A program made the position numbers and the translations under genes. From positions 125,366,001-125,430,000 of the forward strand of contig CM059431.1 of the NCBI GenBank assembly GCA_030390025.1: a DNA stretch of 64,000 bases. Direction: 5' to 3'. Shown piece after piece: positions 11,576-50,465 of this stretch. The notes under the pieces are model-generated. The model had not been told where the DNA came from. It saw only the letters and a program-made list of their open reading frames with translations, and searched no databases. Origin of the DNA: Squalus acanthias. Its lineage: Eukaryota. Position 1 is the stretch's first letter. Each line of letters opens with the position of its first letter.

Positions 11576-11579
11576 AGTA

Positions 11580-11931
11580 CAGCTTGTTGCCCAATGTGAT
11601 TTATCATGTGGTAAATTTTACAATTTAGCATTCCCAATGCAGAGTTTTGTGTCATGGGAGTGTTTATCAGTAAGTAGATTGCAGAGGTCAGCATTTTAAT
11701 GGACAGAAAATTATGTTGAGTGAACGGACCTCCAAACCAAACTATTGATATGTGTTCGCATCGCACAGAGCTCTGAGCTGGGACCACTAACTTGAAGACT
11801 TTAACCCACTATCTTTTTATTTTGTATCTCTTCAATTGTGCTGCATCATTTACAAAAATCTGGATGTCCTGTTGATTCCATCCAAGTCCAATGATCTCCT
11901 CTTTCCTCTCAAAGATTATCAGACATACTGT
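11580..11931 (-). pseudogene. Dynein relic exon, AAA6 lid
   Basis: Strong acceptor ttttttcttcactcctgctatttatacag|. LIIFERKEEIIGLGWNQ resembles A.VQERRKFGPLGWN. After a frameshift, VPAQSSVRCEHISIVWFGGPFT resembles VPW.ALRYL.GE.NYGGRVT. Lower boundary approximate. Confidence 0.65.
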
Positions 11932-12057
11932 CTGTATAAATAGCAGGAGTGAAGAAAAAACAAGGACCAATCTTAATTTTCAATTACTCCATTGTTCTAT
12001 CCTGGAACTGAACACACTAGACCATAGAACCAGCCCTAACTTTCCCTTCCAACACAT

Positions 12058-14004
12058 GGGCCGCAATTTTGCCAGCGCTCAGAGGGCGAGTTCGGAGGCA
12101 GGTCAGTTGTTAAATTCAAAATGATTGACGGCGGGTTATCAAGCCGCCGCGATCCCGCCTCAGTGTGAGTTTCAAGCGTGTTGGGTCTGTGATCTCAGAA
12201 CAGACCCGATAGCAAGCAGCGGGTGAGGGATTTAAAACTCCTTGTTAAGTGCTTGTTAATTGCTATTTGGTCAGCCTTTTCCTATTTTCCCGTATTTTAA
12301 ACAGGTTTCACGATGTTCAGAGATCACGTCAGGTAAGTATGTCGGGAGTGGCAGCGAGCTGCATAGTTCACAGCTGCAACGGTAGTATAAAAGCTAAACT
12401 CTCACATCTGTTCACTTTCAAATGTCAGAGGTGTCTAATTTCAGGATTTGAATGACACATTTGATCTGTTTGGAGGCTGTAAGTGTGTGTTGTGAACTCT
12501 ATATGCACTGTCACCTCCTTGGAGCAAGCTCTCTCACCATTGACAGATCGCTTCTGCCATCTCAACTTCAGCTGCCATCTATTCCAGCAACATCGGTGCC
12601 CTTGAAAAAATCTCACCTTGGTCCTCAGAATCCCTCCACGATCAGCCCCAACACCAACATCATCAGGCACACCAACATCACTAACAACAACACCAACCTT
12701 CTGCGCAATCACCTGATGCTGCACAGGACAGAGGGCATCAGCACCCAACCACATTGTTGCCCAGGAGGCCAGCGATGGCATCACCATGGTCAGATTTACT
12801 TCACTTGACGCTGTACACCCTGGCTGCCACATGATGCACCAGGTTAACACTACCCCACACCAGCACCATAACACATTCCTACAATGACCAAGCTGTTCTT
12901 TTCACACTCATCACCATTGCGGGGGATACCATTATGTCTAACCATTCACTGCAACTCACAAAGACACTTCCAAAGGTGAACACAGATCTGTACAATAAAG
13001 CAAAGTGTTGAAAATAAAGATTTCAATGTTTGACAACACATTAACAGAAAATTTATATGAACATTGCATCACACACCCAAGTGTCTATCCTTGTGTGTTG
13101 TTAGTTGGTATGATGGGACTAGGATGAGGGTGAGTGTAAGGGGTGGCTAGTGAGATGGGGAAGTGTTAATGTAGATAGAGAGGGATGGGTGGAGGTGCAA
13201 GGTAAGTTGGTATGAATAAGGATGTGCAGGAGTAGGGTAGGGAAGGCAGAGTGATGGGGATGTGATGAGTGGCACAGCAGGATGAGGTTGAGTGTGGCTT
13301 TGCAGTAACGTTTCATGATCTACTGAGATCATTGAAAGGTTTGCGCCACTGCAGCCAGGGACTCTTGACGACATCACTGCTTGTGCCCTCCTGTGCAATG
13401 TGCAACCAGGCTGTGTTGGTGTCCTGGGGAGGTCTCTTCCACCCATTAGAAGGGAAGAGAACCTCCCTGCGTGCTGTGACTTCCTCCATAAGCATATGGA
13501 GGGAGTCATGCGTGAGCCTGGGTGCTGCCTATGCTTATACATGAAGAATGGTCATTTCTGTTAGGTACTGGAGGCTGTCCAGTCGAAGTTGGTGCTTTCA
13601 GGGGGAAAGGGAGAAATCTGAAGGGAGAAAAGAAAACAGAAAATACCAGAAATGCACAGCATATTCTTCAGCATCTGATAGAAGGTTAAAAAGATTTTGG
13701 ATGTGACCTTTCATCAGACCTGGCAAGGCCATGCTGGAAAAGTCCAATGCTGCAGAATACTGACAGCACAACTGTCAAAATTAATGTGGCATGGTCCCTT
13801 TAAGGAAATCGGCTGATGACACGTCATCAAATGACGTCATCAGTCCCGCTTCCTATTATTTGGCCGGGAACCCCGCAGGGCGGGCTTAACAAGGCCAATC
13901 TATGGAAAATCATTTTCAGAGAGCGGCTGCAGACGGAAGTGGGACCGGAACCCGCCAACCAGCTCTCCCGCCGCCTTCCCGTATCTGCAGGTAAAATCCT
14001 GCCC
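12058..14004 (-). mobile_element. Internally deleted Harbinger element with a Myb/SANT-like ORF relic
   Basis: Termini gggccgcaatttt / aaaatcctgccc. ORF 13313-13495 LMEEVTARREVLFP...AWLHIAQE...WLQWRKPFNDL. Confidence 0.8.
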
Positions 14005-14089
14005 ATAGGTCTTTAATTGTGTTTGTGTATTTCTAAGAATATCTCTAATAGTGTTAAATTTTCCAGTGTAATTTGTTTAGAATTTTAAG

Positions 14090-14390
14090 GACCTTTTCAA
14101 AATCAATGAAGTTAGTGATGATGCTGACAGCTTGTTTATTCATCATGCTCTCTACAATATTGTGGAGGACAAAGATTTAATTGTTACAAGAACATCCATT
14201 ACGAAACCCAACTTCCAGCCTGTTCTTCATGCATTCTCTTGTCAACAGCATTACTAATCCTATTCAGCAGCATGATGCTGAATTTGATTCCAGAGTCTCC
14301 TAGTAAAGCCATCCCATGCCAGTTGTTATATTCTGATAGTTTTCTCATTTATTGGTAGCTCTTGTGAGATCTTTGTCCCAGTACACAAGA
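14090..14390 (-). mobile_element. Ancient RTE LINE reverse-transcriptase relic
   Basis: NWHGMALL...LLNRISNAVDKRMHEEQAG/FRNGCSC..IFVLHNIVE...NFIDFEK. Confidence 0.75.
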
Positions 14391-14511
14391 TTCTTGTACA
14401 CATTACAACAGTGACTACATTTTGAAAGCATTGGCTGTAAAGTACTTTGGGACATCCTGAGGTCATGAAAGGCGATATATAAATGCAAGTCTTTCTTTTT
14501 TTTACACTTAC

Positions 14512-15477
14512 CATATAGATGTGTTGTCTATTTTGCCAATGTAAGGCAGATTTTCCAATTCTGTCTTCTTTGAAGACATATAGGGCCAGAAATTCGGCTC
14601 TCCGGCTTCCTGCGGGTACAAGCATCACGCGTGTACTTGCCTACCGCGCCTGCCGTTGTGCTTCGGGCCCACGAGGACTTCGGCTCTTGGGCCTCCTGCA
14701 GCTGCCGGCGTGCAGTGCTTGCGTATCCCAGGGGCGCAGTTAGTTCGAAGTGTCCCCTGGGATCACGTGGGCCATGGAGAGCCAATGGAGAGCATTTTCA
14801 TTCATAGATTTGACAGGAAGATCTGTCAAATCTATGAATAGAGATCAGCCCCAAAACCACACTTAAACTTCAAATACATTTTTTAAAAAACATCACATTT
14901 TTAAAATAACTATAAGTTACATAAATTAACTACTTTAAACAAAAATTTAAATTTTTGAAAAAATTAATTATACTTTTTAACGGTGCTAAAAATAAACTTA
15001 CCTTTCTTTAAAGTATGTAAAAAAGATAAACCTGTTGAAAAAATGATTAAATTATAATTAATTAACCACTTACCTTGTTAAAAACAGGCCTTGCGCCTCC
15101 TTTTTAAAAGTGCAGCTTTTCCATACTTACCCTCACGGAGAAACCTGAAAAAAAACGAAGTTCGCTGCGTGCGCGCTGCCTCTACCGCGCACACGTTCGA
15201 CTTCTGAACCCCTTCCTTCAGGGGAACGGAAGTTCCGGTTTCCCGCGCATGCGCAGTGCATGCGTGAAACCGGCACTTCAGGTGGCCTTACGGGTGAGTA
15301 CACAACGCGTACTCACCTGACAAGAGCCGAATTTTTGGCCCATAATCTTGCAGTGAGCTTTGTGCTGATGCATCCTGTGCACATCCAATCCCATCGGCTC
15401 TTGCAGTGTCCGCTCTATTTTACACTTGCATATTTGTGTTCTTGGGTTCTGTCACTTGCTCCACAACATTTTCATTT
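14512..15477 (-). pseudogene. Dynein relic exon, AAA6, interrupted by MITE 14583-15341
   Basis: Acceptor ctgacactag| and donor ATG|GTAAGT. Removing the MITE plus one ATA copy restores the frame: GIGCAQDASAQSSLQDYMSSKKTELENLPY, resembling SLGQGQGPIAEKMIEEAM.EG.WVLLQNCHL. Confidence 0.55.
14583..15341. mobile_element. Harbinger-type MITE inserted in a dynein relic exon
   Basis: TIRs gggccagaaattcggctc / gagccgaatttttggccc, TSD ATA. A close inverted homologue lies at 46938-47703. Confidence 0.9.
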
Positions 15478-16531: not shown

Positions 16532-16866
16532 CAGAATGGAAAAGTAAGTGTGAACATTTCAACAGATTTAAAATATACTTGTGGGCATTATGGCAACCAG
16601 CTCAGGCTTTAAATTCCTGAAGGTCCACTCAGCTGCACTTTTACCAGCAGAGACCCCATCCCAACTCCTGGAAATGGGATTATCTGCACAGCTGGAACAG
16701 ACCATGCATGCCTGCAAGGGTACATCAGTGGTACCTGCTCCAAACCTTTGGCTGATAGTTGGAGAAGCATCATGCTGCTCTGATGCCACGGTAAGTGCTT
16801 GACCAAATATTACGTTCTGGATCTTCGGGATGCCTTACCTTTCTCTAGTAAAGGTTCTGCTAAGGC
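16532..16866 (-). pseudogene. Dynein relic exon, AAA5-AAA6 linker region
   Basis: Acceptor cttttacgcctttcatag| and donor CTG|GTGAGG. YLVKHLPWHQSSMMLLQL resembles NVCRSLFEKHKLLFSFLL. After a frameshift, SRSWDGV...TFRNL resembles DKSW..I...AFKGL. Confidence 0.5.
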
Positions 16867-17299
16867 CTATGAAAGGCGTAAAAGGGAAGAACTCACAGTG
16901 TGCATGGGAACTCTTCCATACCCCTTGATAAGGGTGCAAGGCAAAGGTTCTGCCCATTCCCTCTCCCCTTGCCCCACCAGCAATAGGAAAATGATGAAAT
17001 GACAACTATGAGGAGGATTTTCCCCATTTTCATATCGCCCATTGGGTGATCTGCCCCAGTTCTGTTCAGGGCTCGATTGGAATTTCGGGCACCTCGTGAT
17101 TCCTACCACTCAGTATGATAAGCTATTTGAAATAGCATCAATTAGGGAATGCACATTCTCACAAAACAAGAATTGACCCACTCGTCACACTCACGCGACA
17201 TAAGTAACTCAAAGGACTGAACGTATGGAAGGTGAATAAAGTTCACACCTTCACAGTCACTGCACCTACTTTTGAATGCAAAGGAAAAATAGAATGCTA

Positions 17300-19620
17300 A
17301 TACTGTAGAGTCATGATTCTGTAGTAAGTCATGTAAATCTATATAGCACTGCAGGAGAAGGTGGATTTAACAGAAGGCAGGCCAAAGCTCCTGGAAGAGG
17401 ACCTGGTATAGTAATGGTAGTCAACCTATTTGAGGAAAAGGCAATATAGTTCCAGCCATGCAATGAGAGAGGAGATAGTGCAGTGGGTGAACTTGTCCCC
17501 AGTGAGATTTGTTGCTCTCATTCCTTCTTTCCGTCTCAGTCATGGTTATGTGTCTTAAAATGACAACTTTCAGGTACTTTTCATCTAGATAAGTGTTATG
17601 ATGAGGCTCATGAATAAACATTCACCTAACCTATATGAATGTTCCCTCTTTATATCTTTGCAGCAATGGCAGCACAATCATAGACCAGACACTCCGTAAA
17701 ACATGCAAGAAGCACCTCATCAGGCAGCTTACCACAATTTCCATACAGCAGTCCAGTTTCATCCACTCAGGGGGGAAGTATGACTATGAGGGGAGCACTG
17801 AGGTGGAATCACTGAGGACTAGAGAACAAGAACCAGAAGAGCAGGGGAGCAAGAAAAAGAGACCCCTCAGCAGGGCATAAGTGATCCTTCTCCAGCAGCT
17901 GCACAGGCAGTGGACTAAGAGCTTTTTGGTCATGCATTCAGTAGAAGAATGCTTTCAGAGCATAATATACTGTTGTAGTCAGCTTCCACATAAAGAGTTC
18001 GAGTGTGGAAGAGTCCACATCCCACAAGTGTGCAATATTAATGCAGGGCATTGAAAGCAGGCAGAAATCCTTGATGTGAGTGGCAGCTCCAGAGCCATCA
18101 GTCAAACAGACCCTCACATTTGAGGCACTCTCACAAATGCTCAAACTGCTCCATAAACAACCCTTTATCTGCACTGTGACAGGCTCACAAAAGAGGTAGC
18201 TCAAACCAGGAGAGAAATAGTTTCTGCCATCGTATCATGGGGAATGATGACCCTCAGAATTTGGGGCAGAGAGGCACAGAGGCTTGGAGAAGGGTTAGAT
18301 TGGAACAGGAAAATTTTGCACAGGAGCCTGAAAACAGCCACGATCAGATTGTCCCTACAGCAGCAGATGAGTCACAGCCTGAAGCTGAACCATCTGGTGT
18401 GCAAACTCGCAGAGACTGAAAGTCACCTTGTGTCCTGGAACCTGACAATGACACACAGCTGCATCCTCCTGTCCTGTTCCTGCCTCAGGGAAAGCATTTA
18501 GACAAAGCACCAGACCAATTAACAATGCACAAAACAGCCGCTGTTAGAAAGGGGAAGCACCATGGTGGAAAGAATTGGGTGACAGTTACAATTAGATATC
18601 TGTGCAATAAATGTGTTGGCTGCAATTCATGTAAAGACCCTTTGATGTTATTGCAAGTTCAAATTTTTGCAGTAGGTTGAATGAATGGTACTGTGGATTG
18701 ATTCAGCGTTCTTTTTTCTGGAATGTCTCTTTTGTAACATAAAGATCAAGAGGCAGGGGTGAAATGTAACAGTTTTATTGGAAGAAGGTTTCCAGGATGA
18801 GATTTCTCCGGATGCTTTGGCTAGCAGCAACCTGATGCCCTGTGCTCTGTCTGGAGCCATGGTTTGCGGAAGCCTTCTGCTCTTTCTCAACCCACTCCAC
18901 CTCTTACTCCTCCCGGTGGATGCTCCTTTCAATGGCTAGGTTGAGAAGAATACAGAAAACCACTACGATCCAGGATAGCTTCCCTGGACTATATTGCAGG
19001 ACGCCTCCAGAATGATTCCGGCATCAAAATCTCTGCTTCAGAATGCGAAGAGTATTTTCAATGGTCACTCTGGAGGAACCACGCGCTTCATTATATTTCT
19101 GCTGTGCTTCATTAGATGGGGCCTGCAGGTACCTGAGATTTCAGTCAGCCATTGTCGGTCATCAGACAACGATGGAATGAGAAATTGTCGGAGGATGAAG
19201 GCATTGTGCAGTCTGCCAGAGAACATGGAATCCACCTGCACAATTTTGTGCTGCTGATCGCACACTAGCTGGACACTAATGAAGTAGCATTCCTCTTTGT
19301 GGGAGCCCAGAAACAACATCAATCATGGGTCCTATCAATCATACCACGCACCTTGGACAAGCCAGCAAGTCGGTAAATACCAAGGAGATGTGCTTTCTGC
19401 TCCCCGGCATCCATGGAGAACACACTTTATTAGCAATCAAGGCAGCAGTGACCTGGTGGATGCTCTTATGTACTGCCAACTGCTTTATGCAAGCTATGTC
19501 CCAAGTGACGCACTGAAACTATCCAGTACCGTAAAATGCCATGGTTATTTTCACTGGCACAGATAGTGTAATGAAGGACCATGGTTTCAAGCCTTCCACC
19601 AGCAGATGACACAAATCTTT
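17300..19620. mobile_element. Old Harbinger relic (transposase on -, probable accessory ORF debris on +)
   Basis: ISVQLVCDQQHKIVQVDSMFSGRLHNAFILRQ at 19065-19322 resembles NVQLVCD...PGS.HDAFILRQ. Boundaries approximate. Confidence 0.65.
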
Positions 19621-19624
19621 GACA

Positions 19625-20935
19625 ACCTCCCTGCTAAACAGAAGCATCCCTTCTACTGATAAACAAAACCAACCATTAACCCCTCCATCCTTGCAAACTA
19701 CCGCCCCATCTCCAGCCTCCCTTTCCTCTCAAGTCCTTGAACGTGCTGCCACCTCCCAAATCCGTGCTGATCTTTTCCGGAACTCCATGTTTGAATCCCT
19801 CCAGTCAGGTTTCCGCCCTTGCCACAGTACCGGAATGGCTCTTATCAAAGTCACAAATGACATCCTATATGTGACAAAGCTAAACTATCCCTTCTCGTCT
19901 ATCTTGACCTGTCTGCAGCCTTTGATCCTGTTGATCACATTATCCTGCTCCAACGCTTCTCCACCGTCATCCAGCTGGGTGGGACTGCACTCGCCTGGTT
20001 CCATTCTTATCTATCCAGTCGTAGCCAGAGAATCACCTTAAATGGGTTCTCTTCCACCTCCTGCATTATTACCTCTGGTGTCCCCCAAGGATCTATCCTT
20101 GGCCCCCTGTTATTTCTCATCTACATGCTGTCCCTTGGCGACATCATCTGAAAACACAGCGTCAGTTTCCACACGTACGCCGACGACACTCAGCTCTACC
20201 TCACCACCACTTCTCTCGACCCTTCCATTGTCTCTAAATTGTCAGACTGCTGGTCCGACATCCAGTACTGGATAAGCAGAAATTTCCTCCAACTAAATAT
20301 CGGGAAGTCCGAAGTCATTGTCTTAGGTCTCTGCCACAAACTCTGGTCCCTAGCCATCGACTCCATCCCTCTCCCCGACAACTGTCTGAGGCTGAACAAG
20401 ACAGTTTGCAACCTAGGTGTCATATTTCACCCTGAAATGAGCTTCCGACCACATATCCAAGCCATCACTAAGACCGCCTATTTCCACCTCAAGAACTTTG
20501 CCCAACTCCACCCCTGCCTCAGCTCATCTGTTGCTGAAATCTTCATCCATGCCTTTCTTACCTCTAGACTTGACTATTCTAATGCACCCCTGGCCAGCCT
20601 CCCACGTTCTACCCTCCGTAAACTTGTGGTCATCCAAAACTCGGCCGCCCATGTCCTAATTTGCAGCAAGTCCCATTCACCCATCAACCCTGTGTTTGCT
20701 GACCTACATTGGCTCCCGGTTAAGCAATGCCTCGAATTTAAAATTCCATTCCTTGTTTTCAAATCCCTCCATAATCTAGCCCCTCCCTGTCTCTATAATC
20801 TCCTCCAGCCCTACAAATCTCCGAGATATCTGTGCTTCTCCAATTCTGGCCTCTTGAGCATCCCTGATTTTAATCACCCCAACTTTGGCAGCCGTGTCTT
20901 CAGCTGCCAAGGCCCTAAGCTCTGGAATTCCCTCT
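19625..20935 (+). mobile_element. L2 LINE 3' half
   Basis: QSGFRPCHST, GVPQGSILGP, YADDTQLY, NFLQLNIGKSE, SRLDYSNA and LHWLPVKQ, with frameshifts. Confidence 0.92.
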
Positions 20936-24265: not shown

Positions 24266-27225
24266 ATGTTTGGACCAAGGCTGTTTCGAGGCCTGGAGCC
24301 GAGTGTCCTGAGAGAACCCTAACTGAACATCGGTGAGCAGGTTATTGGTGAGTAAGTGCCACTTTATAGCACTGTCGACGACACCATGATTGAGAGTGGA
24401 CTGATGGGGCCGTAATTGGCCGGATTGGATTTCTCCATGCTTTGTGTGGAAAGGACATACCTGGGCAGTTTTCCACATTGTCGTGTAGATGCCAGTGTTG
24501 TAGCTGTATTAGAACAGCTTGGCTAGAGGCGCGGCTAGTTCTGGAGCACAAGTCTTCAGCATGACAGCCGGATGTTGTCAGGGTCCATAGCCTTTGTTGT
24601 ATCCAGTGCACTGTATCCGTTTCTTGATTTCATGGGTAGTGAATCAAATTGGCATAAGACTGAATTCTGTGATGGTGTGGACCTTAGGAGGAGGCCGACA
24701 TGAATCATCCACTCGGCACTTCTGGCTGAAGATAGTTGCGAATGTTTCAGTCTTGTCTTTTGCACTCACGTGCTGGGCTCTGCCATCATTGAGAATGGAG
24801 TTGTCCATGGAGCCTCCTCCACCCGTTAGTTGTTTAATTGTCCACCACCATTCACGACTGGATGTGGCAGGACTGCAGAACTTTGATCTGATCCATTGAT
24901 TGTGGGATTGCTTAGCTCTGTTTATAGCATGCTGTTACCACTGTTTAGCATGCATGCAGTCCTGTGCTGTATCTTCACCAGGTTGGCACTTCATTTTTAG
25001 GCACATCTGGTGCTGCTCCTGGCATGTTCTTCCACACTCCTCATTGAACTAGGGTTGGTCCCCTGGCTTTCTGGTAATGGTAGAGTGAGGGATATGCAGT
25101 GCTATGAGGTTACAGATTGTGATGGAATACAATTCTGCTACTGCTGATGGCCCACAGCTGCTCATGGATGCCCAGAATAGAGCTGCTAGATCTGTTCTGA
25201 ATCTATCCCATTTAGCACGGTGGTAGTGCCACACAACACGATGGAGGGTGTCCTCAGAGTGAAGATGGGACTTCGTCTCCACAAAGACTGTGTGGTGGTC
25301 ACTCCTACCAATACTGTCATGGACAGATGCATCTGTGACAGGTAAATTGGTGAGGACGAGGTTAAGTCGGTTTTTCCCCCGTGTTGGTTTTCCCACCGCA
25401 GGCCCAGTCTGGCAGTTATGTCCTTCAGGACTCAGCCAGCTCAGTCTGTAGTGGTGCTGTAAGGGTTTTGCGTGTCTCAGAGACGGTGCTGGTGCGAGGT
25501 TAGGCCTTCGTTGCCTAATACTATTGCTTGCTCTGGTCTCCGGCCAGCCTTTTTGCAATAAGCACCTGTGAGTGGTTCGACCCACTCGCCCTTATGGTTC
25601 TAACACTGGACTTAGGTGCAGGGCGCAGTAATGCAGAGAAAACTCACATAGATCCGGTTGAATAGTACGAAATGGAAATCTTTATTGCATAGCGTCCAAA
25701 ATCATGAAGTACATGTCATAGGCACAAATTAACGAGAGTACAAGTATACATACATTCATAAAGCTTGGTCTATGGAAATGAAGAACGCACGGCACATCGT
25801 AAAAGGGGGAACACATTATATCTTAACCTTAAAAACCACCCTCCCTTAACAATACCTACACTACGTCTAGATTTGTAGGATCGGGAAACATGCTCACCAC
25901 TCGTGTTACTTCGGAGAATTTTAAAGTGAGGCACTCAGATCGTTTCGCTGCAGCGCCTGACTGTCACGTGTTTGGAAGGGTTTTCTGCACCCCACTTGTT
26001 TACTTTCGCTGCTGCGAAAAGCAGGCCAGACTCCCTGTTGTCATGAAGAACTCGACGGACCTCGGACACAGTTCAAAGAAGAGTCTTCCTGTGCTCGACA
26101 CCGGTTGTCGGTAGACTTCAATGAAAAGTTCTTTATTTATATTTTTGGGCACGGTCGGGGTTTACTGACCGTGGCGGCACGTGGATTCTTCTCCTTTTCT
26201 TCTCGTTTCGTCTCGTCTCTTCGGGCCTCCGGGTCCAGACACCGTTTACCGACACTCGGGATGGTGCACCCTGTTACTTGCCCTTGTCGGGGCAACTCGT
26301 TCCGATTGAGCTCCACCCAACATTCGAATAACCGACCAGTACGGCTAAGAGTCGAGAGTCAACAAAGTCCAGCCCTAAAGAAGATCTTCAGCCAGCGGTC
26401 GAGCGAGTCAAGAGAATAAGAGATAAGAGCCAGCCGGGAGAATAAGAGACCGATGGACATTTGTTCTCTATAGTTATAGTGCTGTGTTCCCTTATCTCCC
26501 GCTCAAATCTTAATGTTTTTCCTTTGTGTAATATTGGCGCTCAAAACTCCCAGCATGGGACGATTCTTCTCTTTAACGGGTTTCGGTAGCACCTGAAACT
26601 GGCCAACTATCCGTTAATGTTTTCCCTATTGTTGACCCAGCCAGGATGTGTACGAATCGTCTCCCTGACTGGTTTTGGGGGCCCCCGAATACTTGCTTAA
26701 TCACCCGTCGATGTCTCTCTCATTGTAGAGCCGGGGGGGGTATTTGTGTATTGATGTGTCTGGATGGGCCTTCGATTGCCCAGTACAATGGTCCTTACTT
26801 GTGCATGGAAAATGATTCCAGCACTTATATCTTTGCTATTGTTTCAAATGCAAACGGGTTGCATCCTGTCTTTATCAATGTTTACCGAGTATGATCCAAT
26901 CTTATATTGAATGTTTATTCAACGCCATCTTGTCTGCCCACTGTATTTCTGGAAGCTTCTGCCACGATGCTCGGCGGCCATTTTACAGGCTTCTGTGTCC
27001 TTTATTATCAGGACAGCATTTCGTTTAATAAAACTGATCAAACGAATCTGCTTCTCTTATGTTATTTCGAATCGTGATAATTGCGAAACTTTACAGTGCT
27101 GCCGAGCCAGTCTTGGTGATGGACCTTGATATCCCCCTGTGGTGCTGCATTGCTGCTCTTACAACTAAAGGAGCTTCCTGCTCATCCTTCTCCTTCACCT
27201 GCCACATCTTTGAAAGTAGTTCTTC
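24266..27225 (-). mobile_element. Second copy of the CR1-group LINE, interrupted by a solo LTR
   Basis: Homologous to ~22365-23660. The sequence resumes at 27096 after the LTR. Confidence 0.85.
25458..27095 (-). mobile_element. Solo LTR, 1638 bp
   Basis: TGTAA...TTACA termini, 4-bp TSD GTGC. On the minus strand, a TATA-like box at 26469-26478 and AATAAA at 25681-25686. Confidence 0.88.
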
Positions 27226-29757: not shown

Positions 29758-29787
29758 TTGTGCCTCAGAATTCTTGCTGACTCAGAC

Positions 29788-37207: not shown

Positions 37208-37470
37208 TCTCAAGGGTAGTCACTTGGGTGTTCTGTTCTGTTGTGTATAATTTTTGACTGTCATCTTTTTGTGAATGGATTAAACAGAAGTGATGGCAAA
37301 CAGTTGAAGTTCTGGCCTATGTGATCTTGGAATTAGAAGTTCCACATTGAGGGCTCAGGGCGACTTGCATTTGTAGTGATGGTGGTCAGAGTGATAGGAA
37401 CCCACAGGTTCTTGTACATTGCGTATGGTGTGTTAAGAAGGTGCCAGCCACATTTGTTTCATTCATCTAC

Positions 37471-38568
37471 TTAAGCAAATCTGGCAATGATTAGTGCATC
37501 CCTTGCATCTCGGGCAGCAATGTGCTCGCGTGCTGCTGGAACTGGTGCATCCGCCTCTGCAAGGTCTTCCTCCTCCTCCTCTTCCTCCTCATCTGAGGAG
37601 GCTATGCGCTGAGCCACTTGTTCCTCAGGCAGCTGCAAGCAACGATGCTGTGTGGTGCTGAGCAGTGCACAGCAGACCACGACAATTCTGGAGACCCTGG
37701 CTGCTGAATACTGTAGGGCTCCACCTGATCTGTCAAGGCATCTGAATCGCATCTTCAGCAAGCTGATGGTTTGCTCGATGATGGATCTGGTCGAAATGTG
37801 GCTGGCATTGTAGCGCTCCTCAGCTTCGTTCAATGGCCTCCTCAACGGCGTCATCAGCCACGTCTTCAGGGGATAGCTCTTGTCTCCAAGTAGCTAACCG
37901 GAAAGTTGCTTTGGTGGATTGAAGAGCGGAGGCACACTAGACTGCCGCAGGATGAACGAGTCATGGCAACTGCCAGGGTACTTCTGGCAAACATGCAAAA
38001 TGTCCTTCCTGTGGTTACACACCAGCTGCATGTTGAGGGAGTGGAAGCCCTTGCGGTTGACAAAAACAGCTGAGTTGTGATGTGGTGCCTTAAGGGCCAC
38101 ATGTGTGCAGTCTATGACACCCTGCACCCTTGGCAAGCCTGCCATATCTGCAAAGCCAACCACATGCGCGGTTACACTTGCTTGATCCATTGAGAAGTGT
38201 ATGTAGTTGTGCGCCTTGGCAAAGAGGGCATCGGTTACCTGCGTGATGCAAGTGTGTGCGGCCGACTGGGAGATGCCGCTGATGTCTGCTGATGGTCCCT
38301 GGAAGGACCCTGAAGCAAAAAAATTGAGTGTGGTGGTGACTTTGACAGCCAATTGTAAGGGATCTTCACCCGTTCCTCTGGGCTCCAGGCGTTGGTGCAG
38401 CATTACGCAGATGTCAGCGACTACCTCTCGCGAAAGTCTCAGCCTCCTTTGGTACTGCTGTTTTCGTTCCTGTTGTTGCTGCTGCTGTTGTTCCTGGTTC
38501 TGCTGCTGCCGCGGCTGCTCTTCCTCCGAATCTGAGGACCAGGATGAAAGGAAATAAATGGTTCCCAT
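37471..38568 (-). pseudogene. Harbinger DDE transposase (HARBI1-like), disrupted near 37895
   Basis: [42 protein letters not shown] and [16 protein letters not shown]. Confidence 0.93.
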
Positions 38569-40504
38569 GCTGCTGGTAGATATCTCAGTTGAGGAAGTGC
38601 TCAGTCAATGTGGGGAGAGGGTTTTCCCAGGAGGCCACAATGGAGATGGATTTCAGCTTCACCACTTCCAAGATCAGTAGACCTGCAAAAAGGTTTCCAA
38701 GACCTGAAAAAACAAAGTTCTGCCACCTGCAACTGATCCTTGTTGGAAGCTCCATTCTTATGGTGGAGCTGCAGCTGTGAAGAAGGAAGCCACTTGTGAA
38801 CCCGGCACAATTAGTTGGCGTGGTTTGGGAACGACGTGGAACACGCTGAAAATGTGGTAAAATTTAAAAGGGCAGGCAAAATAGGATTACACAGGCAGTT
38901 AACAACCAATTAACTGCCTTAAGGGCCTATCCCGCCGCTTGGTGGCGGGACCAAACGGGAGTCTGCAAGCCCGCCTTTGGCAAAGTTGCACGGAGATGGG
39001 TTGACGGCAGGATCGGAAGCCTCGGCATTTTTAGCCATTTTACCACCTGACCCGCCTCCAAACCCGCCCCTGAGCGCCGGCAAAATCGAGCCCATAGAGT
39101 ATTCCATGTCTGAACAACTTTCCATCCAAAAATAATTTAAAACAACATCTCCCTTCAAAATATCTGTCATGTGTTATGCCCTTTAGTCACTGATTCACTG
39201 AACAGTAGAAAAGCTTCTTTCCTATGTAACTTATCAAAACCCCTCATAATTTCTAATACCAATATCTGATGTCCTCTAAACCTTTTCTGTTCTAGTGAAA
39301 ATAACTTCAGTTTCCTCTTGTATCTAATCATAGCTAAAGCCAGTCACCTCTGGTATCATTTTATTAAATCTCCCAAGGTAGAGTGCTCAAAGCTGGACAT
39401 AATATTCTAACTGTGGCCAAACCAATGATTTGTATAGGTTTAATATGACCTCTTTATTGTAAATGATAATAAGGATGTGGACATGTTGAATAATTAATTT
39501 GCGTCAGTATTTACAGTACAGGAAGAGGATAGCATGCTGGACATTCCAAGGAAACTAATATTGAATCAGGGGCGGGGACTCACTAAATTAACGTAAGCAA
39601 AATAACAGCAATGAAGAAAATAATGACACTAAAGAGTGACAAATCCCCAGGGTTTTAAAGGACGTAGGCGAGAACATTGCAGATGCCCTAACTATAATCT
39701 TCCAAATTTCTCTTGATTTGGGAACTGTTCCTTTACATTGGAAAATTACGCATGTCACTCCACTATTTAAGAAAGGTGGGAGAGAGAAACCATGGAATTA
39801 TAGATCAGTTTGCCTAACATCTGTTGTCGGGAAATTACTAGAGTCTATAATTAAGGCCAGAGTAACTGAACAACTTAAACATTTTCTGCTGATCAGAGAG
39901 AGCCAGCATGGATTTGTAAAAGGTAGGTCATGCCTAACGAACCTGATTGAATTTTTTGAAGAGGTGACTAAAGTAGTGGACAGAGGAATGTCTATGGATG
40001 TTATGTATATGGATTTCCAGAAGGCATCTGATAAAGTCTCTTATAAAGTTGAAGCTCATGGAATTGAAGGCAAATTATTGATGGTTAGGAAATTGGCTGC
40101 GCGGCAGGAGACAGAGAGTAGGAATAATGGGCAGGTACTCTAATTGGCAGGATGTGACCAGTGATGTCCCGCAAGGATCTGTGTTGGGGCCTCAACTATT
40201 CACCGTATTTATTAACGACTTAGATGATGGGATAGAAATCCACATATCCAAGTTTGCCGATGACACAAATATAGGTGGCATTGTAAGCAGTGTAGATGGA
40301 AGCATAAAATTACAAAGAGATATCAATAGATTGAACAAATGAGCAAAACTGTGGCAAATAAATTCAATGTAGGCAAATGTGAGGTCATCGACTTTGGAGC
40401 TATAAAGGATAGAACTGAGTACTTTCTAAATGGTGGAAAGCTAGAAACAGTGGCGGTCCAAAAAGACTTGGGGTCCACATACATAAGATTATTAAAATGT
40501 CATG

Positions 40505-42425: not shown

Positions 42426-44060
42426 TGTAAGGGGTTCGGTTTGGGGTGCTTGTGCGGGGTTAGGCCTTCGTTGCCTAATACTATTGCTTGCTCTGGTCTC
42501 CGGCCAGCCTTGTTGCAATAAGCACCTGTGAGTGGTTCGACCCACTCGCCCTTACGGTTCTAACACTGGACTTAGGTGCGAGAGCAGTAATGCAGAGAAA
42601 AACTCAAATAGACCCGGGTGAATAGTACGAAATGGAAATCTTTATTGCATAACGTCCAAATTCATGAAGTACATGTCATAGGCACAAATTAATGACAGTA
42701 CAAGTATACATACATTCATAAAACTTTGTCTAGGGTAATGAGGAACGCACGGCATATCGTAAAAAGGGGGACACATTATATTTATCCTTAATAAGAACCA
42801 CCCACCCCTATCAATACCTACACTAATCTAGATTTGTAGGATCGAGGAAACATGCTCACCACTCGTGATACTGCGGAGAATTTTAAACGAGGCACTCGGC
42901 TTATTTTGCTGCAACACCTGACTGTCACGTGTTGGAAGGGGTCTCTGTACCCCACTTGTTTATCTTCTCTGCTCCGGCTAGCAGGCTAGGCTCCCCGTTG
43001 TCATGAAGAACTCGACAGTGCTCGGGGCCCGGTTCGAAGAAGAGTCTTCCTGTGTCCGACACCGGTTGCCGGTAGAATTCAAAGAAGAGTCTTTGACCAG
43101 TTCGTGCAGTAACCTATAGAGTTAAAAAATGGTCTATATATTTTCGGGCGCGGTCGGGGTTTACTGACCGCGGCGGCACGTGGATTCTTCTTCTTCTCTT
43201 CTCGTCTCGTCTCATCTCTTCGGGCCTTCGGGTCCAGAACACCGTTTACCGACCCTCGGGATGGTGCACTGGCCTCCGTTGAGGCGGCTCGTTCCAAATT
43301 GAGCTCCACCCAACATAGGAGAATAAAAGTTCAGCCCGCGTCCAGAGTCAGTTCAAACGAACCAGCCCCGGGAGGATCAGAGGAATAAGAGAGTTCAGCA
43401 GCCAGCAGCGAGATAAGAGAGTCAAGAGACCAATGGACATTTGTTCACTATAGTTATAGTGCTGTGTTCCCTTATCTCCCGCTCAAATCTTGATGTTTGT
43501 CCTTTGTGTAATACTGGTGCACAAAACTCCCAGCATGGGGCGATTCTTTCCTTTAATGGGTTTCGGTAGCACCTTAAACTGGCCAACTATCCGTTAATGT
43601 TTTCCCCATTGTCGAACCGGCTAGGAGTCTCCCTGACTGGTTTTGGGGCCTCCTCGAATACTGACTTAATCACCCGAGAATGGCTCTCTCATTGTAGAGC
43701 CGTGGGGAATTTGCGTATTGATGTATCTGGATGGGCCTTCGATTGCCCATTACAATGGTCCTTACTTGTGCATGGAAAATGATTCCAGCACTTATCTCTT
43801 TGCTATTGTGTCGAATGCAGACAGGTTGCATCCTGTCTTTATCAGTGTTTGCTGCGTATTAACCAATCTTATACTGAAATGTTTATTCGAACGCCATTTT
43901 GTCTGCCCACTGAAAATTCTGGAAGCTTCTGCCACGAGGGTGGCCATTTTACAGGCTTCTGTGTCCTGTTTAATCATGACAGCATTTCGTTGAAATAAAA
44001 CTGATGAAACGAATCTGCTTTATCTCGTTATTTCGAATCGCGATAATTGCAAATTTTACA
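42426..44060 (-). mobile_element. Solo LTR, 1635 bp, same family as 25458-27095
   Basis: TGTAA...TTACA termini, 4-bp TSD GAAC. TATA-like box at 43449-43458 and AATAAA at 42641-42646 on the minus strand. Confidence 0.88.
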
Positions 44061-44849
44061 GAACTGATAGGGTAGCTAGAGAGAAACTATTTCCACTGGT
44101 TGGGCAGTCTAGGACTAAGGGGCATAGTCTAAAAATTTGAACCAGGCCTTTCAGGAGTGAAGTTAGGAAACACTTCTACACACAAAGATTGGTAGAAGTT
44201 TGGAACTCTATCCCACAAACAGCAATTGATGCTAGGTCAATTGTTAATTTTAAATCTGAGATTGATAGATTTTTGTTAACCAAAGGTATTAAACGATATG
44301 GGGCAAAGGCAGGTATATGGAGTTAGGTCACAAATCAGCCATGATCTCATTGAATGGCAGAACAGGCTTGAGGGGCTAAATGGTCTACTCCTGTTCCTAT
44401 GTTCCTATGTTCTTATGTTCCTATGTTCCTCTTTGATTTTGTATTCTTATGCCCCTATTTATAAAACTTAGGAATCCATGCACATTTTTTTACAGCTTTT
44501 AAAGATTTGTGTATCTGAACTCCAATATCTCTTTGCTCCTCTACTCCTTTAAAAGTTTAACCATTTAGTGTTATATTTCCTGTCATTCGTTTTTCTAAAA
44601 TGAATCACCTCACAGACACTGCATTAAATTTTATCAGATATCTAACCATGTAGTACTAATCTGTCTATAGCTTCCTGGAGTCACTAATAGTCCTCTTCAC
44701 AGTTAACCACACTCTCTATTTGTGTCATCTGCAAATTTTTAAGTCGTGCCCAATACCCAAATCCAGCTATATATGTGTGTGAGAACCAGCAGGAACAAAA
44801 AGATGTCCACAAAAGAAAATGAGTTAACAAATGACTGAAACACACTTAC

Positions 44850-45025
44850 CTTAAGATTACTGGATCCTATCCATGGTCTTTTTCTTATAGTTATCATTGC
44901 CTAGCAAACCTGAATAGCCATTTTAGGTGATGTGATTTGTGTCTGACATCCTGCATGCCAGAACATTGGAGAATAGTGTGTAAAATGTTCCTGCCTCCAG
45001 ATTAATATTTAAATCAAGCACTTGC
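44850..45025 (-). pseudogene. Dynein relic exon, end of stalk
   Basis: Strong donor AAG|GTAAGT. TLFSNVLA...*NGYSGLLGNDNYKKKTMDRIQ* resembles NLVGDVLLSAAF..YLGPFT..YRQ.L..W. Confidence 0.55.
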
Positions 45026-46090
45026 CTGTTTGCAGTAGGTGTTTCTAACGCTATTGGCCCCCATCGCCCAGAAAGTAGACTGTGACACAAAGTGGATGGA
45101 GTTCCAGTGGAAAAGGATTACCACCCCTTTTCCATTACCAGCTGCCTAATTTACACCAATAGACTGGGTGGCCGGGAGTGAAAAATTCAGGCTTGCATAT
45201 TGATGCTGCATGTGGAAGCTGCACATGCATGCTGTTGTACATGCACATTTCGGGGCAGGAATTCAATTTTGGGCAGTAGCACAGAATGAATTAGCCGCCT
45301 GTTCCTCGAATATCAGGCGGGGCGTATAACCGCCAGCCGATGTGATACCTCTTGTTTTGCGCGATCGCCCAAGGTGAATTTCTAGCCCAGTAAGTTGATA
45401 CTAGCACATTTTTTTAACCCACTTTAAAAATCACTGGATGAGAAAGGAGATTCCAGGGGGAAATAGTGAAACCTACTGAGCTGCTTCCAGGTGCCCACCT
45501 CCTCCTTTTTTGTAACAGGATGTAGCAAAAAAGCAGGAAGTGGGGAGCTGGAAGCAGCCATGCTTTTATACCATTATGAAATTTGCATCTGAACACTACT
45601 AATTTAAAACTCTGTCTTTACTTTTGATTCATGATGGAGATTTTCTTTATTCTGAATGTTCGAAGTTCACTATCTAATGGAAGACAGGAGCTGATATGTT
45701 TCAGTGACTCATCTCCAGTTTCCCTCTATTAACATACTGCCAGATTCAGATTAAGGAATGACATTCTGAATACGATAGATATTCAATACAAATCTAAGGT
45801 TTTAAGTTATCTAAGGATTCATTTCTCCGAGTAGTAGTTAGGACTATCAGCTTCTCAAAACAAATCCCCAAGTCAGTGATTTGGATTAATACTTAAACTA
45901 GAAAACAATTTTCTCTTAGAAGCCTTAGGATGCTTTGAATGAACTCTGTACTGTTCCAAAGGCATCCTGGTGATTGGAAACAGTTCAATGAAAGGATAGG
46001 AGAAAGGGCAACGGGGCTCTTTCTTCTACAACTACTTCTGGAGAAAGTGATGCCTGAGGCCACTGGCACCTGACCAAGAACACAACTCAC

Positions 46091-46428
46091 TGCTATTAGT
46101 ACTGGCAATACCAGTGCCAGCAGCGATGTTCACTCAGCGCTGTCTCCACATGATTTCAGGTCATTATTTGTCATCATCACTGCAATGCAGACCACAGAAT
46201 GAACCAGCTGCAGGTGGTGTTACTTTGATGTTTTTATTTTGCCAAATGACCTTTTCAATATGCTGCAAATACCTTCTATTGAAGTGGGAGAAAGTGCATT
46301 CAGTTCATTACAAGATTTGTGATAAGCCAGTACCAAAGAAGGTAACAGGACTTACATTGCTACTAAAGGCCCAGGTAACAGCTATAGTGGTCTTTGGTAA
46401 GTTTGTGATTGGTAAAAAGGTGTTTCCC
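46091..46428 (-). pseudogene. Dynein relic exon, microtubule-binding domain
   Basis: Acceptor tttctggcag| and donor |gtgagt. ITNLPKTTIAVTWA resembles MKNPP..VKLVMEAV, and NRRYLQHIEKVIWQNKNIKVTPPAAGSFC resembles P..TIKKIRKYI.NP.F....VS.AA.SLC. Tandem TAA TGA stops lie in frame. Confidence 0.55.
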
Positions 46429-46769
46429 CTGCCAGAAAGTTATTTATAATGTGCCAATGCATTTGCCCTTACTTCAATGTACTTTTGCGGCAAGAAATGA
46501 AGGGAGTCTGAGAAGTAGAACTGGAACTAAAATTTGGGGCTTAAATATTTCTGCCAAAACTCACTACTTCCCTGTGAGTTTCATCTCTCAAATGAATATA
46601 TAGCAAAATTTGAATGCTAAAATGGATGTCACACAATGGAGATAATTCATTCCCTAGGCTTATCAGTAACCCTACTTGTGAAACACATAAAGGCTAATAA
46701 CAGCTGTACATCTTGAAAACTTAGCTGAGCAATTTTGCAAATTTTCCCATAGTTGACCTGCAGCTACCT

Positions 46770-46934
46770 CACATTATGCCAGGGCGATGACTGTATACAT
46801 AGTTTAGTGCAGTGTCCCAGGGCTGAAGGAGTGACTGTGGCTCAATAATTGTCAACATATCCTCAGGCAGCAAGAATGCAGAGGGCACTTTTTTTCTTTC
46901 TATCCAGATTGCAAAGTAGTGCTGCTTCAGGGAC
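46770..46934 (-). pseudogene. Dynein relic exon, stalk coiled-coil 1
   Basis: EDMLTIIEPQSLLQPWDTALNYV resembles EEDLAEAEPALEAA.AALNTL. It lies between the AAA4-like and MTBD-like segments. Confidence 0.4.
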
Positions 46935-46937
46935 ATT

Positions 46938-47703
46938 GGCCCAAAAATTCGGCCCTTCCCGCGTGAGTACACAATGTGTACTTACCCGTATTGCTTCCCG
47001 AAGTGCCGGTTTCCTGCATGCACTACGCATGCGCGGGAATCCGGAACTTCCGGTATGGTGAAGGGGGCGGTTCCTAGGTGAACCGCGTGCGCGCTAGAGG
47101 CTGCGCGCACGCAGCACACTTAGTTTTTTTTTTCAGGTTTCTACGCGAGGGTAAGTATTGAAGATACTACGCTAATAAAAAGGAGGCGTAAGACCCCTTT
47201 TGAACAAGGTAAGTGGTTAATTAAGTATAATTTTAAAAAATTTTCAACAGGTTTATCTTTTTTAGACACTTTAAAGAAAGGTAAGTTTATTTTTATAACT
47301 TTTAAAAAGTATTTTAATTTTTTCAAAAATTTAAATTTTTGTTTAAAGTGGTTAATTTATTTAACTATAGTTATTTTATAAATGTGATGGTTTTTAAAAA
47401 AATATTATTTTAAGTTTAGCTGTTCTTTTGAGGCCGATTTCAATTCACAGATTTGACAGGTCTCCTGTCAAATCTATGAATGAAAGATGGTCTGCTGCCA
47501 TTGGCTCTCCATGGCCCACGTGATCCCAGGGGTCGCATCGCACTAACTGCGCCCCTGGAACACGCCAGCACTGCGCACCGGCAGTTGGGAGAGGCCCAGG
47601 ACCCGAAGTTCCCGTGGGCCCAAAACACAACGGCAGACGCGGTAGGTAAGAGCGCGTGCGATCCTTACCCCCGCAGCAAGCCGGACACGTGAATTTCTGG
47701 GCC
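46938..47703. mobile_element. Harbinger-type MITE, inverted homologue of 14583-15341
   Basis: TIRs ggcccaaaaattc / gaatttctgggcc, TSD ATT. Confidence 0.9.
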
Positions 47704-48641
47704 ATTATGAACAACAATAACAATTACTATAGCAGGGTAGCAGCTAACTCAGCAGCTCACCCTGCAATCCTGAGGCTGGAGAAGTAGGAAGGCTGGTTTT
47801 AACATATCTTGCCCATGAAGAGCAGTTCATTAGACCATATCAGCAGCCAACTCTAGACCACTCTTGCTCTCTATAAACATCGATGGAGACACTTCCCGTT
47901 ACCATAGGAGACCAGTTAGATGTTATTGGCTAGATCAAGTAACGATATTAACAATCCTCTTTTCCAGAAGGTAATGCCCTTTGGGGCAAAGAAACGGAAA
48001 TCTTTCTGTTCAAATGAAGTATTGGAATAAATATTGAGGTCTATTTGAATTTTGGGGGACCGACCGGCAGGGCGCACTGATTGGACACCTATTCCAGTGG
48101 TGAAGAGGCCCCCGTCATTTTGAGGCTACAGCCTCCTTTAAATTTGTCAGGTGAGCTGCAGGGTACCAAATAGGCACCCCAATGCAGTTCGCCATATTCA
48201 ACAATGGAAATCGGTCAGAGCTACCCACAGCAAGGTAAGCTGCTTTCGGGGTCAGGGCCACGATTGCGGCGAGTAGGAGTCCCCGGTGGCAGCCGCCCAG
48301 ATAATTTTTTTCACTCTGTGGAGCCCACAAACGTAATTGAACATTTAACTTTATAGGGCCTCTTCTCTTCCATCGAATTCATTGGAGCCTGCACTATACG
48401 GGGGCCAAACAATTCCTACCTAAAATGACTATCGAATCCTACTTATGTCATAGGACCCCTATTTTCATGTTAAAATGTTCCTTGAATTAGGCAGGCACTT
48501 TGGACACCCAGCAGTAGGCCCCTTTTAAAATGGAGTCAGCCGCATCGCCGATGTTAACGGGGTGGTAAGGCTACCGACCCCATTTTGAGGTTGTTACCGC
48601 CCCATTAGTGCCAGGCGAGGGCACTCAAAATCAAACCCATT

Positions 48642-49414
48642 GGGGGAAAAATTCACCTGCTTGCGCCTCCCATTAGCGCCTTAAGAGGGCGCTAATGGGG
48701 CGTAAAGCAGCTAACGCCCGGGCGCAGCGCCGCCCACGCCTCCCGAAAAATTTAGTGGGAGGTTAGCGGCGGCGGCAGCCGGTAGCGCCCTGTGGCGCTG
48801 CGCCGCCGGCGATGACGTCATCGCCGTGCGCAGCGCCCCGCTCACGCCCCGGCCGTGATCTTCAGTCGCGCCCCCTGATTTACCGCCAGACGCTATGTCC
48901 GACGGGTTCAGGGGGGCGTACGTGCGGCCGGGGCGGCGATATTTAAAGGGGAGGTGGCAGGCGGCCATTTTTGTTGCTGGCCGCCTGCCAGCACCTGCCC
49001 CCGTTGCTGTCCCCGGCCCCCGTGAAGCCCCCCCACCGTGAAGTGCCGGCTGCGCCCCAAGAGCCCGGCACTTCTCTTGAGTGCCGGGCTCTTTTGCCGG
49101 CACTCCCGATCCCCGGGGGCCCAGCTGGGCCCCGGTTCGCGCTGCGCAAGGCCCCTCCCCTTTAAGAAGGGGAGGAAGGCCTGCAATACCGCGGCGCGAC
49201 GTGCCGCAGCACGTGGCGCTGCGGCACGTAGCGCCAGGATATTCACTTGCAGCGCCCCAAGAGGGATGCGGGGTGCTTCCAGTTGCGCCCCGCTTCCCTC
49301 TTGGGGCGCAACCACTGAAGTTCCGGCGCGGGGCCGCTAATTTTTTCGGGGCGCTAAAAGTCACGCCCCGGCGAGGTTAGCGCCCCAAATGGGGCGCGAC
49401 TCAATTTTTACCCC
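48642..49414. mobile_element. Young CpG-rich MITE, adjacent to an older MITE at ~48050-48638
   Basis: TIRs gggggaaaaatt / aatttttacccc, TSD ATT, many AGCGCC/GGCGCT motifs. Termini shared with 54585-55480. Confidence 0.88.
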
Positions 49415-49512
49415 ATTGTGTCTGCTGCAGCAAAGAAGTGACGTTCTGTTTAGTAGCACAACATGGTTAAAAATGATGGCACTTGCATGTGTAAACTTGA
49501 ATTTACATCTAC

Positions 49513-49771
49513 TCTTCTTCTGAGGCAGTCCCTCGGAACCAAAGATGACTTGCTTCCACATTAAAAATGAGTTCTCAGGTGATTGATGAGTCCAATGCGG
49601 GACCTACAGTCTCTGTCACAGGCGGGGTGCTTTGGTTGACGTGCGCTCCTTCCGCTGTTTGCGCTTGGCTTCCGCTTGCTCCCGGCTAAGAGACTCGAGG
49701 TATTCGGCGCCTTCCTGGATGCTTCTCCTCCACTTTGTGCGGTCTTGGGCCAGGGATTCCCAGGTGTCGGT
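49513..49771 (-). mobile_element. RTE LINE 3' fragment inserted in a dynein relic exon
   Basis: Homologous to ~1610-1899 with a small internal deletion. (AAG) tail. Confidence 0.9.
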
Positions 49772-50465
49772 TGAATTGGTTGTATGTCATTGCCAATTTC
49801 ATTCTAGAGCAGTAAGAGAGGTGACTACACAATGAAGCAATAAGTGAAGGTCATGCTCCCGGTTATGCATAATTAAAGAAATGCTATATGTAAATACAAA
49901 TGTGATTTTCAGGACTCTTGTCTCCTCAAGGACAAAAGTTATTTCATGGCCTCTTAGAGCAAATACTTCAAATCATTCTTCACCAACGATATAGAAAAAT
50001 ATGGAAAATGTATTTTCTTTGCAAGGCAAATTGAGCCTCATTGCAACCTGGTCTGCCATCTGGAAAATTAATACTCCAATGATATTTGGCAGCATTCTCT
50101 CCACCCAGTTAAGTAGGCCTTAAAATCCCCAAGCTTTTGAGCTGCTTTTAAGCTTTGGATAGACGTTATATTTTGATTTGGGCAATTGACAATAGGGCTG
50201 AAAATCTGAGGCCCTTCCAATACACTCTCACTGTAAATCTGGTGGGAGTACACCCACAGGGACAGAAATGAGTCCAGCAGCCTCCAGCTGTGCATATCAG
50301 GAAAGTGCAGCATGCTGCCCAGGATTTTAATGGATGGAAAATCAAGGGCAGCACCGTTGCGATTTCCTGATATGTGTCACCAGTAGACGAGCTCCCAATC
50401 GGAAGTGCAACTCAGTAAACCATCCCTCATATGCCACCATAGCCATGTTCTATCTCAGTTGGAAT

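Follow-up and report, generated by a model that had tools for sequence, protein, structure and literature searches.

Splice-like sites and dynein motif look-alikes are at chance level in a neutrally evolving stretch of the Squalus acanthias genome

The splice signals ascribed to a decayed dynein gene in a 64,000-nucleotide stretch of Squalus acanthias DNA (hereafter, the window) are no rarer than chance and are equally common on the opposite strand, and the likeness of the peptide IGCAQ to the dynein motif LGQGQ is likewise at chance level. The stretch 44850-46900 evolves neutrally, and no signal of a canonical dynein or of DNAH14 was found. We put at about even the chance that no dynein gene was ever here and that the region consists of DNA drifting neutrally and without function between and among LINE, Harbinger, and small repeats. 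Strong-looking GT and AG sites turn up at intervals of one to two kilobases on both strands, and look-alikes of dynein motifs, five or six residues long, by the dozen. Because both are abundant, anyone expecting a dynein will always find some good site to set beside a poor motif, and the apparent contrast between kept splice sites and wrecked motifs may be a product of the reading method.

The six splice-like sites named in the initial annotation were confirmed letter by letter on the minus strand and are near consensus (Table 1). Both strands of 11580-50194 were scored with an approximate splice matrix. Donors equal to or better than 44850 numbered 5 on the minus strand and 5 on the plus strand; the corresponding counts were 28 and 31 for donor 30226, 14 and 11 for donor 14512, and 105 and 114, 39 and 47, and 94 and 106 for acceptors 29956, 16866, and 11931, respectively. 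GTRAGT occurred 28 times on the minus strand and 27 times on the plus strand. The altered motifs were also as described in their letters (IGCAQ, FGGPFT, and a missing Walker A), but their identity as dynein motifs was not upheld. In unique sequence, IGCAQ-grade BLOSUM matches to LGQGQ numbered 73 on the minus strand and 62 on the plus strand, FGGPFT-grade matches to YGGRVT numbered 2 and 4, and no Walker-A-like peptide (G.[GD]G[ST]G) was present on the minus strand. Measured against conservation across 146 dyneins, the canonical axonemal DNAH motifs (AAA4 Walker A, LGQGQ, and YGGRVT) were not found here. With hhalign, FGGPFT aligned instead to WLSGFFFPQGFL, a C-terminal motif (probability 0.05%), and the 16866 piece, which lies upstream of IGCAQ, already has its best DNAH14-like placement beyond LGQGQ. 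Since the sites were chosen post hoc when dozens of others were as good, and since neither peptide can be assigned to its motif unambiguously, the argument that splice sites outlasted motifs fails; splice-site consensus chosen in this way is uninformative on when a gene diverged.

Table 1. Features proposed or found in the window (coordinates are those of the window).
Feature	Position	Strand	Remarks
Proposed first exon	49850-50194	-	By-eye likeness to AAA2/3 lid only; placement p 0.13-0.50
Proposed large AAA3-AAA4 exon	44850-46600	-	Single-copy block; dynein signal absent in all searches
Old interspersed-repeat fragment	about 45270-45437		Depth pile-up; inside proposed large exon
Donor-like site 44850	44844-44852	-	AAG/GTAAGT
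PIF/Harbinger transposon	35155-38604	Myb/SANT piece +; DDE_Tnp_4 transposase -	Between proposed exons
Proposed exon ending at donor 30226	30220-30527	-	Acceptor-like TTTCAG near 30527; p 0.49 and 0.71 for chains built post hoc
Donor-like site 30226	after 30226	-	AAA/GTGAGT
Acceptor-like 29956 and following 200 bases	29756-29972	-	Site inspection, profile order test
Repeat element	29492-29755		Within proposed 29956 exon; inverted copy 33915-34134
Acceptor-like 16866 and following piece	16560-16882	-	Weak likeness to post-LGQGQ region; p 0.07 and 0.53 with two profiles
Acceptor-like sites	29956, 16866, 11931	-	Pyrimidine tract and AG
IGCAQ peptide	15375-15389	-	First residue at 15389
Repeat element	14577-15342		Between IGCAQ and donor 14512; second copy 46937-47709
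Donor-like site 14512	14506-14514	-	ATG/GTAAGT
Low-stop frame over acceptor 11931	11464-11979	-	172 codons, one stop; carries ERK..GLGWN and FGGPFT
FGGPFT peptide	11719-11736	-	Begins at 11736

The proposed large exon contains stops in all frames (27, 43, and 25 per ~583 codons). Its divergence among four relatives was 4.4-4.5%, vs. 4.5% in a flanking LINE relic; non-triplet, frame-breaking indels were present in the same comparison, and substitutions by position modulo 3 were 12/11/14 (37 rows used). Because it diverges at the rate of the LINE relic and carries frame-breaking indels, the proposed exon is dead in all of the relatives, with the neutral divergence and broken frames of a pseudogene or of non-coding DNA. 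The most distant relative compared was 12-15% different, and it too has a sequence of similar length to the repeat fragment inside the proposed exon. The Harbinger transposon was recognized from its Myb/SANT piece (E 1e-5) and DDE_Tnp_4 domain (E 3.9e-15). A Pfam domain search found no neighbouring genes within the window, and an Rfam search gave 0 matches. No RNA records are listed for 44800-46600, which has no bearing on expression.

The premise of a dynein pseudogene was confirmed by no search. Pfam dynein families gave 0 matches in 45 frames (stops read as X), solved dynein chains in the PDB gave no significant match, and one frame of the large block had 0 matches among 1.84e9 representatives. 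When one frame of 44800-46599 was used in a word search of proteins of 1051-3000 residues, none of 1939 candidates matched at E up to 10. Frameshift-aware profiles built from up to 146 dyneins, DNAH14 included, reached 23-26 bits at best on the minus strand vs. 21-36 bits in controls, i.e., noise, and colinearity of the matches to AAA1-AAA6, the stalk, and the C-terminus gave p 0.61 and 0.51 with two profiles. A DNAH14 profile (8 vertebrate and 10 invertebrate proteins; five entropy settings) gave no score above controls, and canonical axonemal dyneins were undetected by tblastn or profiles. The strong tblastn matches of shark P0182 (E 6e-15, residues 1083-1172) lie on copies of Harbinger transposase rather than on dynein sequence. 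Atlas recognition was 1114 and 1787 (11464-11808 and 45896-46129 queries), below the threshold of 2300, and the chemokine-like Atlas matches for 45896-46129 (0.77-0.80) were at chance level. In length-restricted searches aimed at DNHD1/DNAHX, DNHD1 was not named among the best 120 of 600 and best 120 of 209 matches, and only canonical classes and DNAH14 were among the matches listed; the protein collection ends at 5000 residues, and sea urchin DNAHX has 5272.

Coding-likeness z values were 0.5-3.8 vs. a background mean of 1.8 (sd 1.4), and hand-picked chains of pieces, assembled post hoc, gave p 0.49 and 0.71. By-eye re-mappings of 15640 as FHAvileR, of 44983 and 30360 as the DNAH14 lid and AAA3, and of 30527-29925 as the AAA4 end and stalk all failed controls.

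The best single hint of former coding, a weak one, is the frame over acceptor 11931. No other frame in unique sequence runs so far with one stop or none, and 2 of 2000 shuffles equalled it, a figure uncorrected for the ~180 windows. Within it, ERK..GLGWN lies ~50 codons ahead of FGGPFT, the dynein-profile placement has p 0.019-0.063, and the AAA6 lid is the best or second-best placement on two of three profiles and third on the other. Neither Pfam, PDB, nor Atlas (query 11464-11808) returned a match. This one-stop frame and its AAA6-lid placement run counter to the view that no dynein was here. So does the order of the named sites on a DNAH14-like profile, where five of the six fall in gene order (26 of 720 orderings); on a broader profile, only three of the six do so.

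The comparison motifs of the initial annotation came from canonical axonemal dyneins (DNAH1, 2, 8, 9/11/17, 10, and protist relatives), which are undetected in the window whereas their simulated relics are detected. It is very unlikely that a pseudogene of DNAH14 or of a canonical axonemal dynein lies here with its motifs erased by neutral decay alone. DNAH14 (DHC9B) does differ from the comparison motifs even as a living protein (AAA4 GLDGTGK and SLGRGQ in amphibian and echidna proteins) while retaining YGGRVT, and the faint ordered matches came from a DNAH14-like profile: 44983 and 30360, profile neighbours in the proper order, were among the best minus-strand matches (22-24 bits), but never exceeded control maxima. 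Simulated canonical DNAH relics stayed mostly detectable up to ~0.25 substitutions per site, where they scored 30-187 and 55-92 bits vs. 16 and 50 observed; the residual similarity expected of such a relic up to that level was not seen. At 0.35 substitutions per site, a relic of only eight 150-base exons would fade, but a simulated large exon kept 25-135 bits vs. 16 observed, and the small difference from the most distant relative also argues against so much decay. Over 420 million years, which we took as the time span, a rate of 7e-10 per generation and generations of at least 2 years give at most ~0.15 substitutions per site by our own arithmetic. That rate is a pedigree mutation rate (PMC10587355). 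Since a canonical DNAH relic would show through more decay than these slowly mutating genomes have probably undergone, any dynein here would already have been very divergent in life, like DNHD1 or classes 12/13 (DNAHX). To that extent, and only if a dynein is present, the simulations favour the proposed divergent, non-canonical ancestor; the argument originally made for it does not. Nor would that ancestor be undescribed, a degenerate DNHD1-like dynein being of a known kind.

For an ancestor of that kind, the searches read differently. By the simulations, a DNHD1-like gene that had decayed by 0.15-0.35 substitutions per site would give the same null results, so these are compatible with such a relic. 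The region may hold an old unitary pseudogene whose parent, an orphan dynein of class 11 (DNHD1), class 12 (DNAHX), or class 13, was already degenerate; this is a real possibility, if one we hold somewhat doubtful. Its motor motifs would have been lost in life and its death would precede the split of the five lineages compared, with repeat insertions, stops, and frameshifts later; some of the named splice sites may be real, though they count for nothing as evidence. Besides the disfavoured canonical ancestor, the low-stop frame with its ERK..GLGWN and FGGPFT spacing and the by-eye colinear look-alikes adjoining splice-like sites point this way. By description, DNHD1 (Kollmar class 11) resembles the degenerate motifs and large exons of the initial annotation: passages of PMC9916431 describe large motor-region exons in the human gene (c.5989 in exon 21, c.8782 in exon 25), and passages of PMC11785096 a degenerate AAA1 and motor motifs in life. 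Unlike the window, with its neutral evolution and its stops in every frame, DNHD1 is intact, and sperm flagella depend on it. Sections of PMC5100056 give classes 11-13 very low TBLASTN similarity to known DHCs; by description in parts of PMC5100056 and PMC11785096, DNAHX/class 12 and class 13 are recognized dyneins of aquatic animals, non-motile or aberrant, that canonical queries pick up with difficulty. DNAHX is probably class 12. Against an orphan relic, statistical support was nil from every reference tested, one frame of the large block matched nothing in a library covering every representative, while shark gene models exist in a related collection (P0182), both Atlas values were below threshold, and two incompatible by-eye maps, with 44850 as the AAA4 end or as the AAA2/3 lid, fit equally.

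A search of titles found nothing on a dynein pseudogene or on loss of DNHD1, DNAH14, or DNAHX in sharks; Kollmar supplementary file 1 may list a fish pseudogene. The word "shark" is absent from the main text of the DNAHX paper (PMC11785096). DNAHX and other orphan dyneins are reported mainly from animals shedding sperm into water. A fossil DNAHX or other orphan dynein (class 12 or 13), lost early in cartilaginous fishes at the shift to internal fertilisation and still legible only because shark DNA mutates slowly, seems unlikely. Dynein degenerating while alive is already in print (DNHD1, DNAHX). A relic of classes 11-13, if confirmed, would put a date on the disappearance of an orphan dynein within cartilaginous fishes and would bear on what non-motile dyneins do in sperm flagella and on whether they are lost once fertilisation becomes internal. 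Were it DNAHX or a class 12 or 13 dynein, it would, besides dating the loss, put the suggested tie of DNAHX to external fertilisation to the test.

The initial annotation described a dynein pseudogene at 11580-50194 whose splice sites were better kept than its protein motifs, as if the motor had diverged before it died. Six splice-like sites (donors at 44850, 30226 and 14512; acceptors at 29956, 16866 and 11931) were indeed located on the minus strand, as were the peptides IGCAQ (from 15389; read as an altered LGQGQ) and FGGPFT (from 11736; as an altered YGGRVT). Sites on both strands of 11580-50194 were counted with a splice matrix that approximates vertebrate frequencies. Donors scoring at least as high as each named one numbered 5, 28 and 14 on the minus and 5, 31 and 11 on the plus strand; for acceptors, the counts were 105, 39 and 94 versus 114, 47 and 106. 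Matches to LGQGQ of IGCAQ grade occurred 73 times on the minus and 62 times on the plus strand of unique sequence, and those to YGGRVT of FGGPFT grade 2 and 4 times. The named sites and motif look-alikes are nothing unusual and, since equally good ones occur on both strands, the contrast is a selection artefact and no sign of divergence before death. Under a rough model of neutral decay at 0.25 per site, survival of a lone GT is ~0.63 and a five-residue motif retains at most two residues with probability ~0.34; therefore, good sites beside bad motifs, when chosen, show no in-life divergence even in a true pseudogene. The yardstick motifs are not invariant, since amphibian and echidna DNAH14 in life read GLDGTGK in AAA4 and, in place of LGQGQ, SLGRGQ.

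The 64-kb window abounds in relics of LINE reverse transcriptase, in Harbinger transposons and in small repeats (see table), and 23,696 of its 64,000 bases are repeated elsewhere in it. Both hairpins are probably old non-autonomous elements, and the frame at 3744-4223 presumably ends as in Penelope-like retroelements. Residues 1083-1172 of a Mustelus "DNAH8-like" gene model (P0182) match the window's Harbinger transposase copies at 48-50% identity; this stretch of the model is probably a mis-predicted exon. The likeness suggests a cartilaginous fish as the source of the window.

Repeat-related and other features of the window
Feature	Position	Strand	Detail
PIF/Harbinger element	35155-38604	transposase on -	second gene fairly intact
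Myb/SANT piece of PIF/Harbinger element	35155-35580	+	
Open frame of PIF/Harbinger element	36083-37207	+	374 codons
Additional Harbinger transposase relics	near 19411-19644, 54223-54474, 8679-8795		
Hairpin, isolated	33144-33326		78-base arms, 86%; 27-base loop
Hairpin, isolated	45480-45558		38-base arms, 84%
1.6-kb repeat, two copies	25485-27096, 42445-44061		83% identity
C-terminal frame, presumably GIY-YIG-like	3744-4223		

Contigs of four relatives were aligned over 44430-46930, which includes the proposed large exon (44850-46600), with 40 of 354 substitutions and 12 of 31 indels listed. Divergence of the exon was 4.5% and 4.4% in two relatives, in both of which the LINE-derived flank differed by 4.5%; for the exon it was 5.7% in the third and 12-15% in the fourth. 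Substitutions fell 12/11/14 by position modulo 3 (37 positions, from the 40 of 354 listed), and indels, among those listed, measured 1, 1, 2, 12, 1, 1, 1, 2, 5 and 25 bases. Since a repeat at ~45270-45437 inside the exon has a counterpart of similar length in the most distant relative, any exon was broken before that split. The stretch is dead, neutral DNA; the alignment covers this exon, and we infer the same of the other pieces.

With stops read as X, searches of Pfam (18 frames, then 27 further frames) found no dynein family, and the frames searched against PDB gave no dynein match; one frame of 44801-46600 had no match at E <= 0.001 among 1.84 billion representatives. As references served 26 long metagenomic ORFs coding for axonemal dyneins, together with 205 long proteins taken from the matches listed, including eight vertebrate DNAH14 as well as mammalian DNAH1, salamander DNAH11-like, fish DNAH9/17 and shark DNAH8-like proteins; the orphan classes 11 (DNHD1), 12 and 13 were absent among the matches listed. 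Using these references, tblastn gave a best E of 0.11 and, in a second run, no E < 0.1 inside the proposed exons among the 50 matches listed. Profiles were built from the 26 metagenome ORFs plus the first 120 proteins, or from 8 to 18 DNAH14-type proteins. A frameshift-aware profile scan reached 24.3 bits on the minus strand versus 25.7 for the reversed profile, and exon chaining was no better than with block-permuted profiles (p 0.61 of 65, 0.51 of 79). Segment tests gave a best p of 0.019 in a first set of 14 (rest 0.16-0.96) and 0.048, 0.063 and 0.074 in a second of 24. A chain of pieces picked by eye gave p 0.49 and 0.71, and hhalign placed the piece at 11931 in two differing positions, with a probability of 0.05% in one run and 0.08% in another. 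Eight of the proposed exons had coding-likeness values (z 0.5-3.8) inside background (mean 1.8, sd 1.4). At 45440-46600, coding-likeness was z 4.7 on the plus versus 1.6 on the minus strand, values also spanned by other unique stretches, and despite the higher value the plus strand matched no Pfam family.

Some observations would suit a relic. The longest frame with at most one stop in unique sequence, 11979-11464 (172 codons, 37% GC), was equalled in 2 of 2000 shuffles, with ~180 overlapping windows examined; it contains acceptor 11931, and CLIIFERK..GLGWN lies ~50 codons ahead of FGGPFT, as in canonical dyneins. When fixed to the named sites, a DNAH14-like profile placed five of six as ordered in the gene, a result that 26 of 720 orderings would give; acceptors ranked 6, 7 and 14 of 77 and donors 8, 11 and 26 of 41; a broader profile placed three of six (acceptors 7, 17 and 66; donors 17, 33 and 36). 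The top two DNAH14-like matches, at 44983 and 30360, are order neighbours, yet fall below control maxima at five settings and imply a map other than the AAA4 reading.

To such a relic, decay simulations set limits. Held-out canonical and DNAH14 proteins were back-translated and decayed with 0.09 indels per substitution, a value of our choosing. At 0.25 substitutions per site, a simulated large exon kept a score of 30-187 bits, and at 0.35 one of 25-135, compared with 16 for the actual sequence (control mean 17, maximum 26); eight simulated 150-base exons scored 55-92 and 51-66 bits at these two levels, compared with 50 for the actual sequence (controls 50-52). With an ancestor ~20% identical to the consensus, the signal faded between 0.15 and 0.35. 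We allowed 420 million years, over which long-term rates may exceed pedigree rates. At a pedigree rate of 7e-10 per generation (PMC10587355) and generations of at least two years, at most ~0.15 substitutions per site would accumulate in that time. Since simulated relics mostly stay visible up to ~0.25 and so little decay is allowed, a canonical ancestor altered by neutral decay alone would be unlikely, and we regard a canonical relic as very improbable. The proposed non-canonical ancestor thus holds conditionally, if a dynein is present; the searches lend the dynein itself no support, and we put the chance that the stretch contains none at even.

A relic of a known divergent class is somewhat doubtful but a serious candidate. 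Kollmar 2016 defines metazoan classes 11 to 13, describes their TBLASTN similarity to known heavy chains as very low, and mentions that the genomes of fishes and birds carry disturbed dynein pseudogenes (PMC5100056). DNHD1 is described as lacking Walker B residues, and DNAHX as a heavy chain that is non-motile, has a degenerate AAA1 and belongs to animals whose fertilisation is mostly external (PMC11785096). Human DNHD1 has large motor exons, since c.5989 falls within exon 21 and c.8782 only within exon 25 (PMC9916431). It is rather unlikely, though conceivable, that the stretch is a relic of DNAHX (by inference class 12) or class 13, lost early in the internally fertilising cartilaginous fishes.
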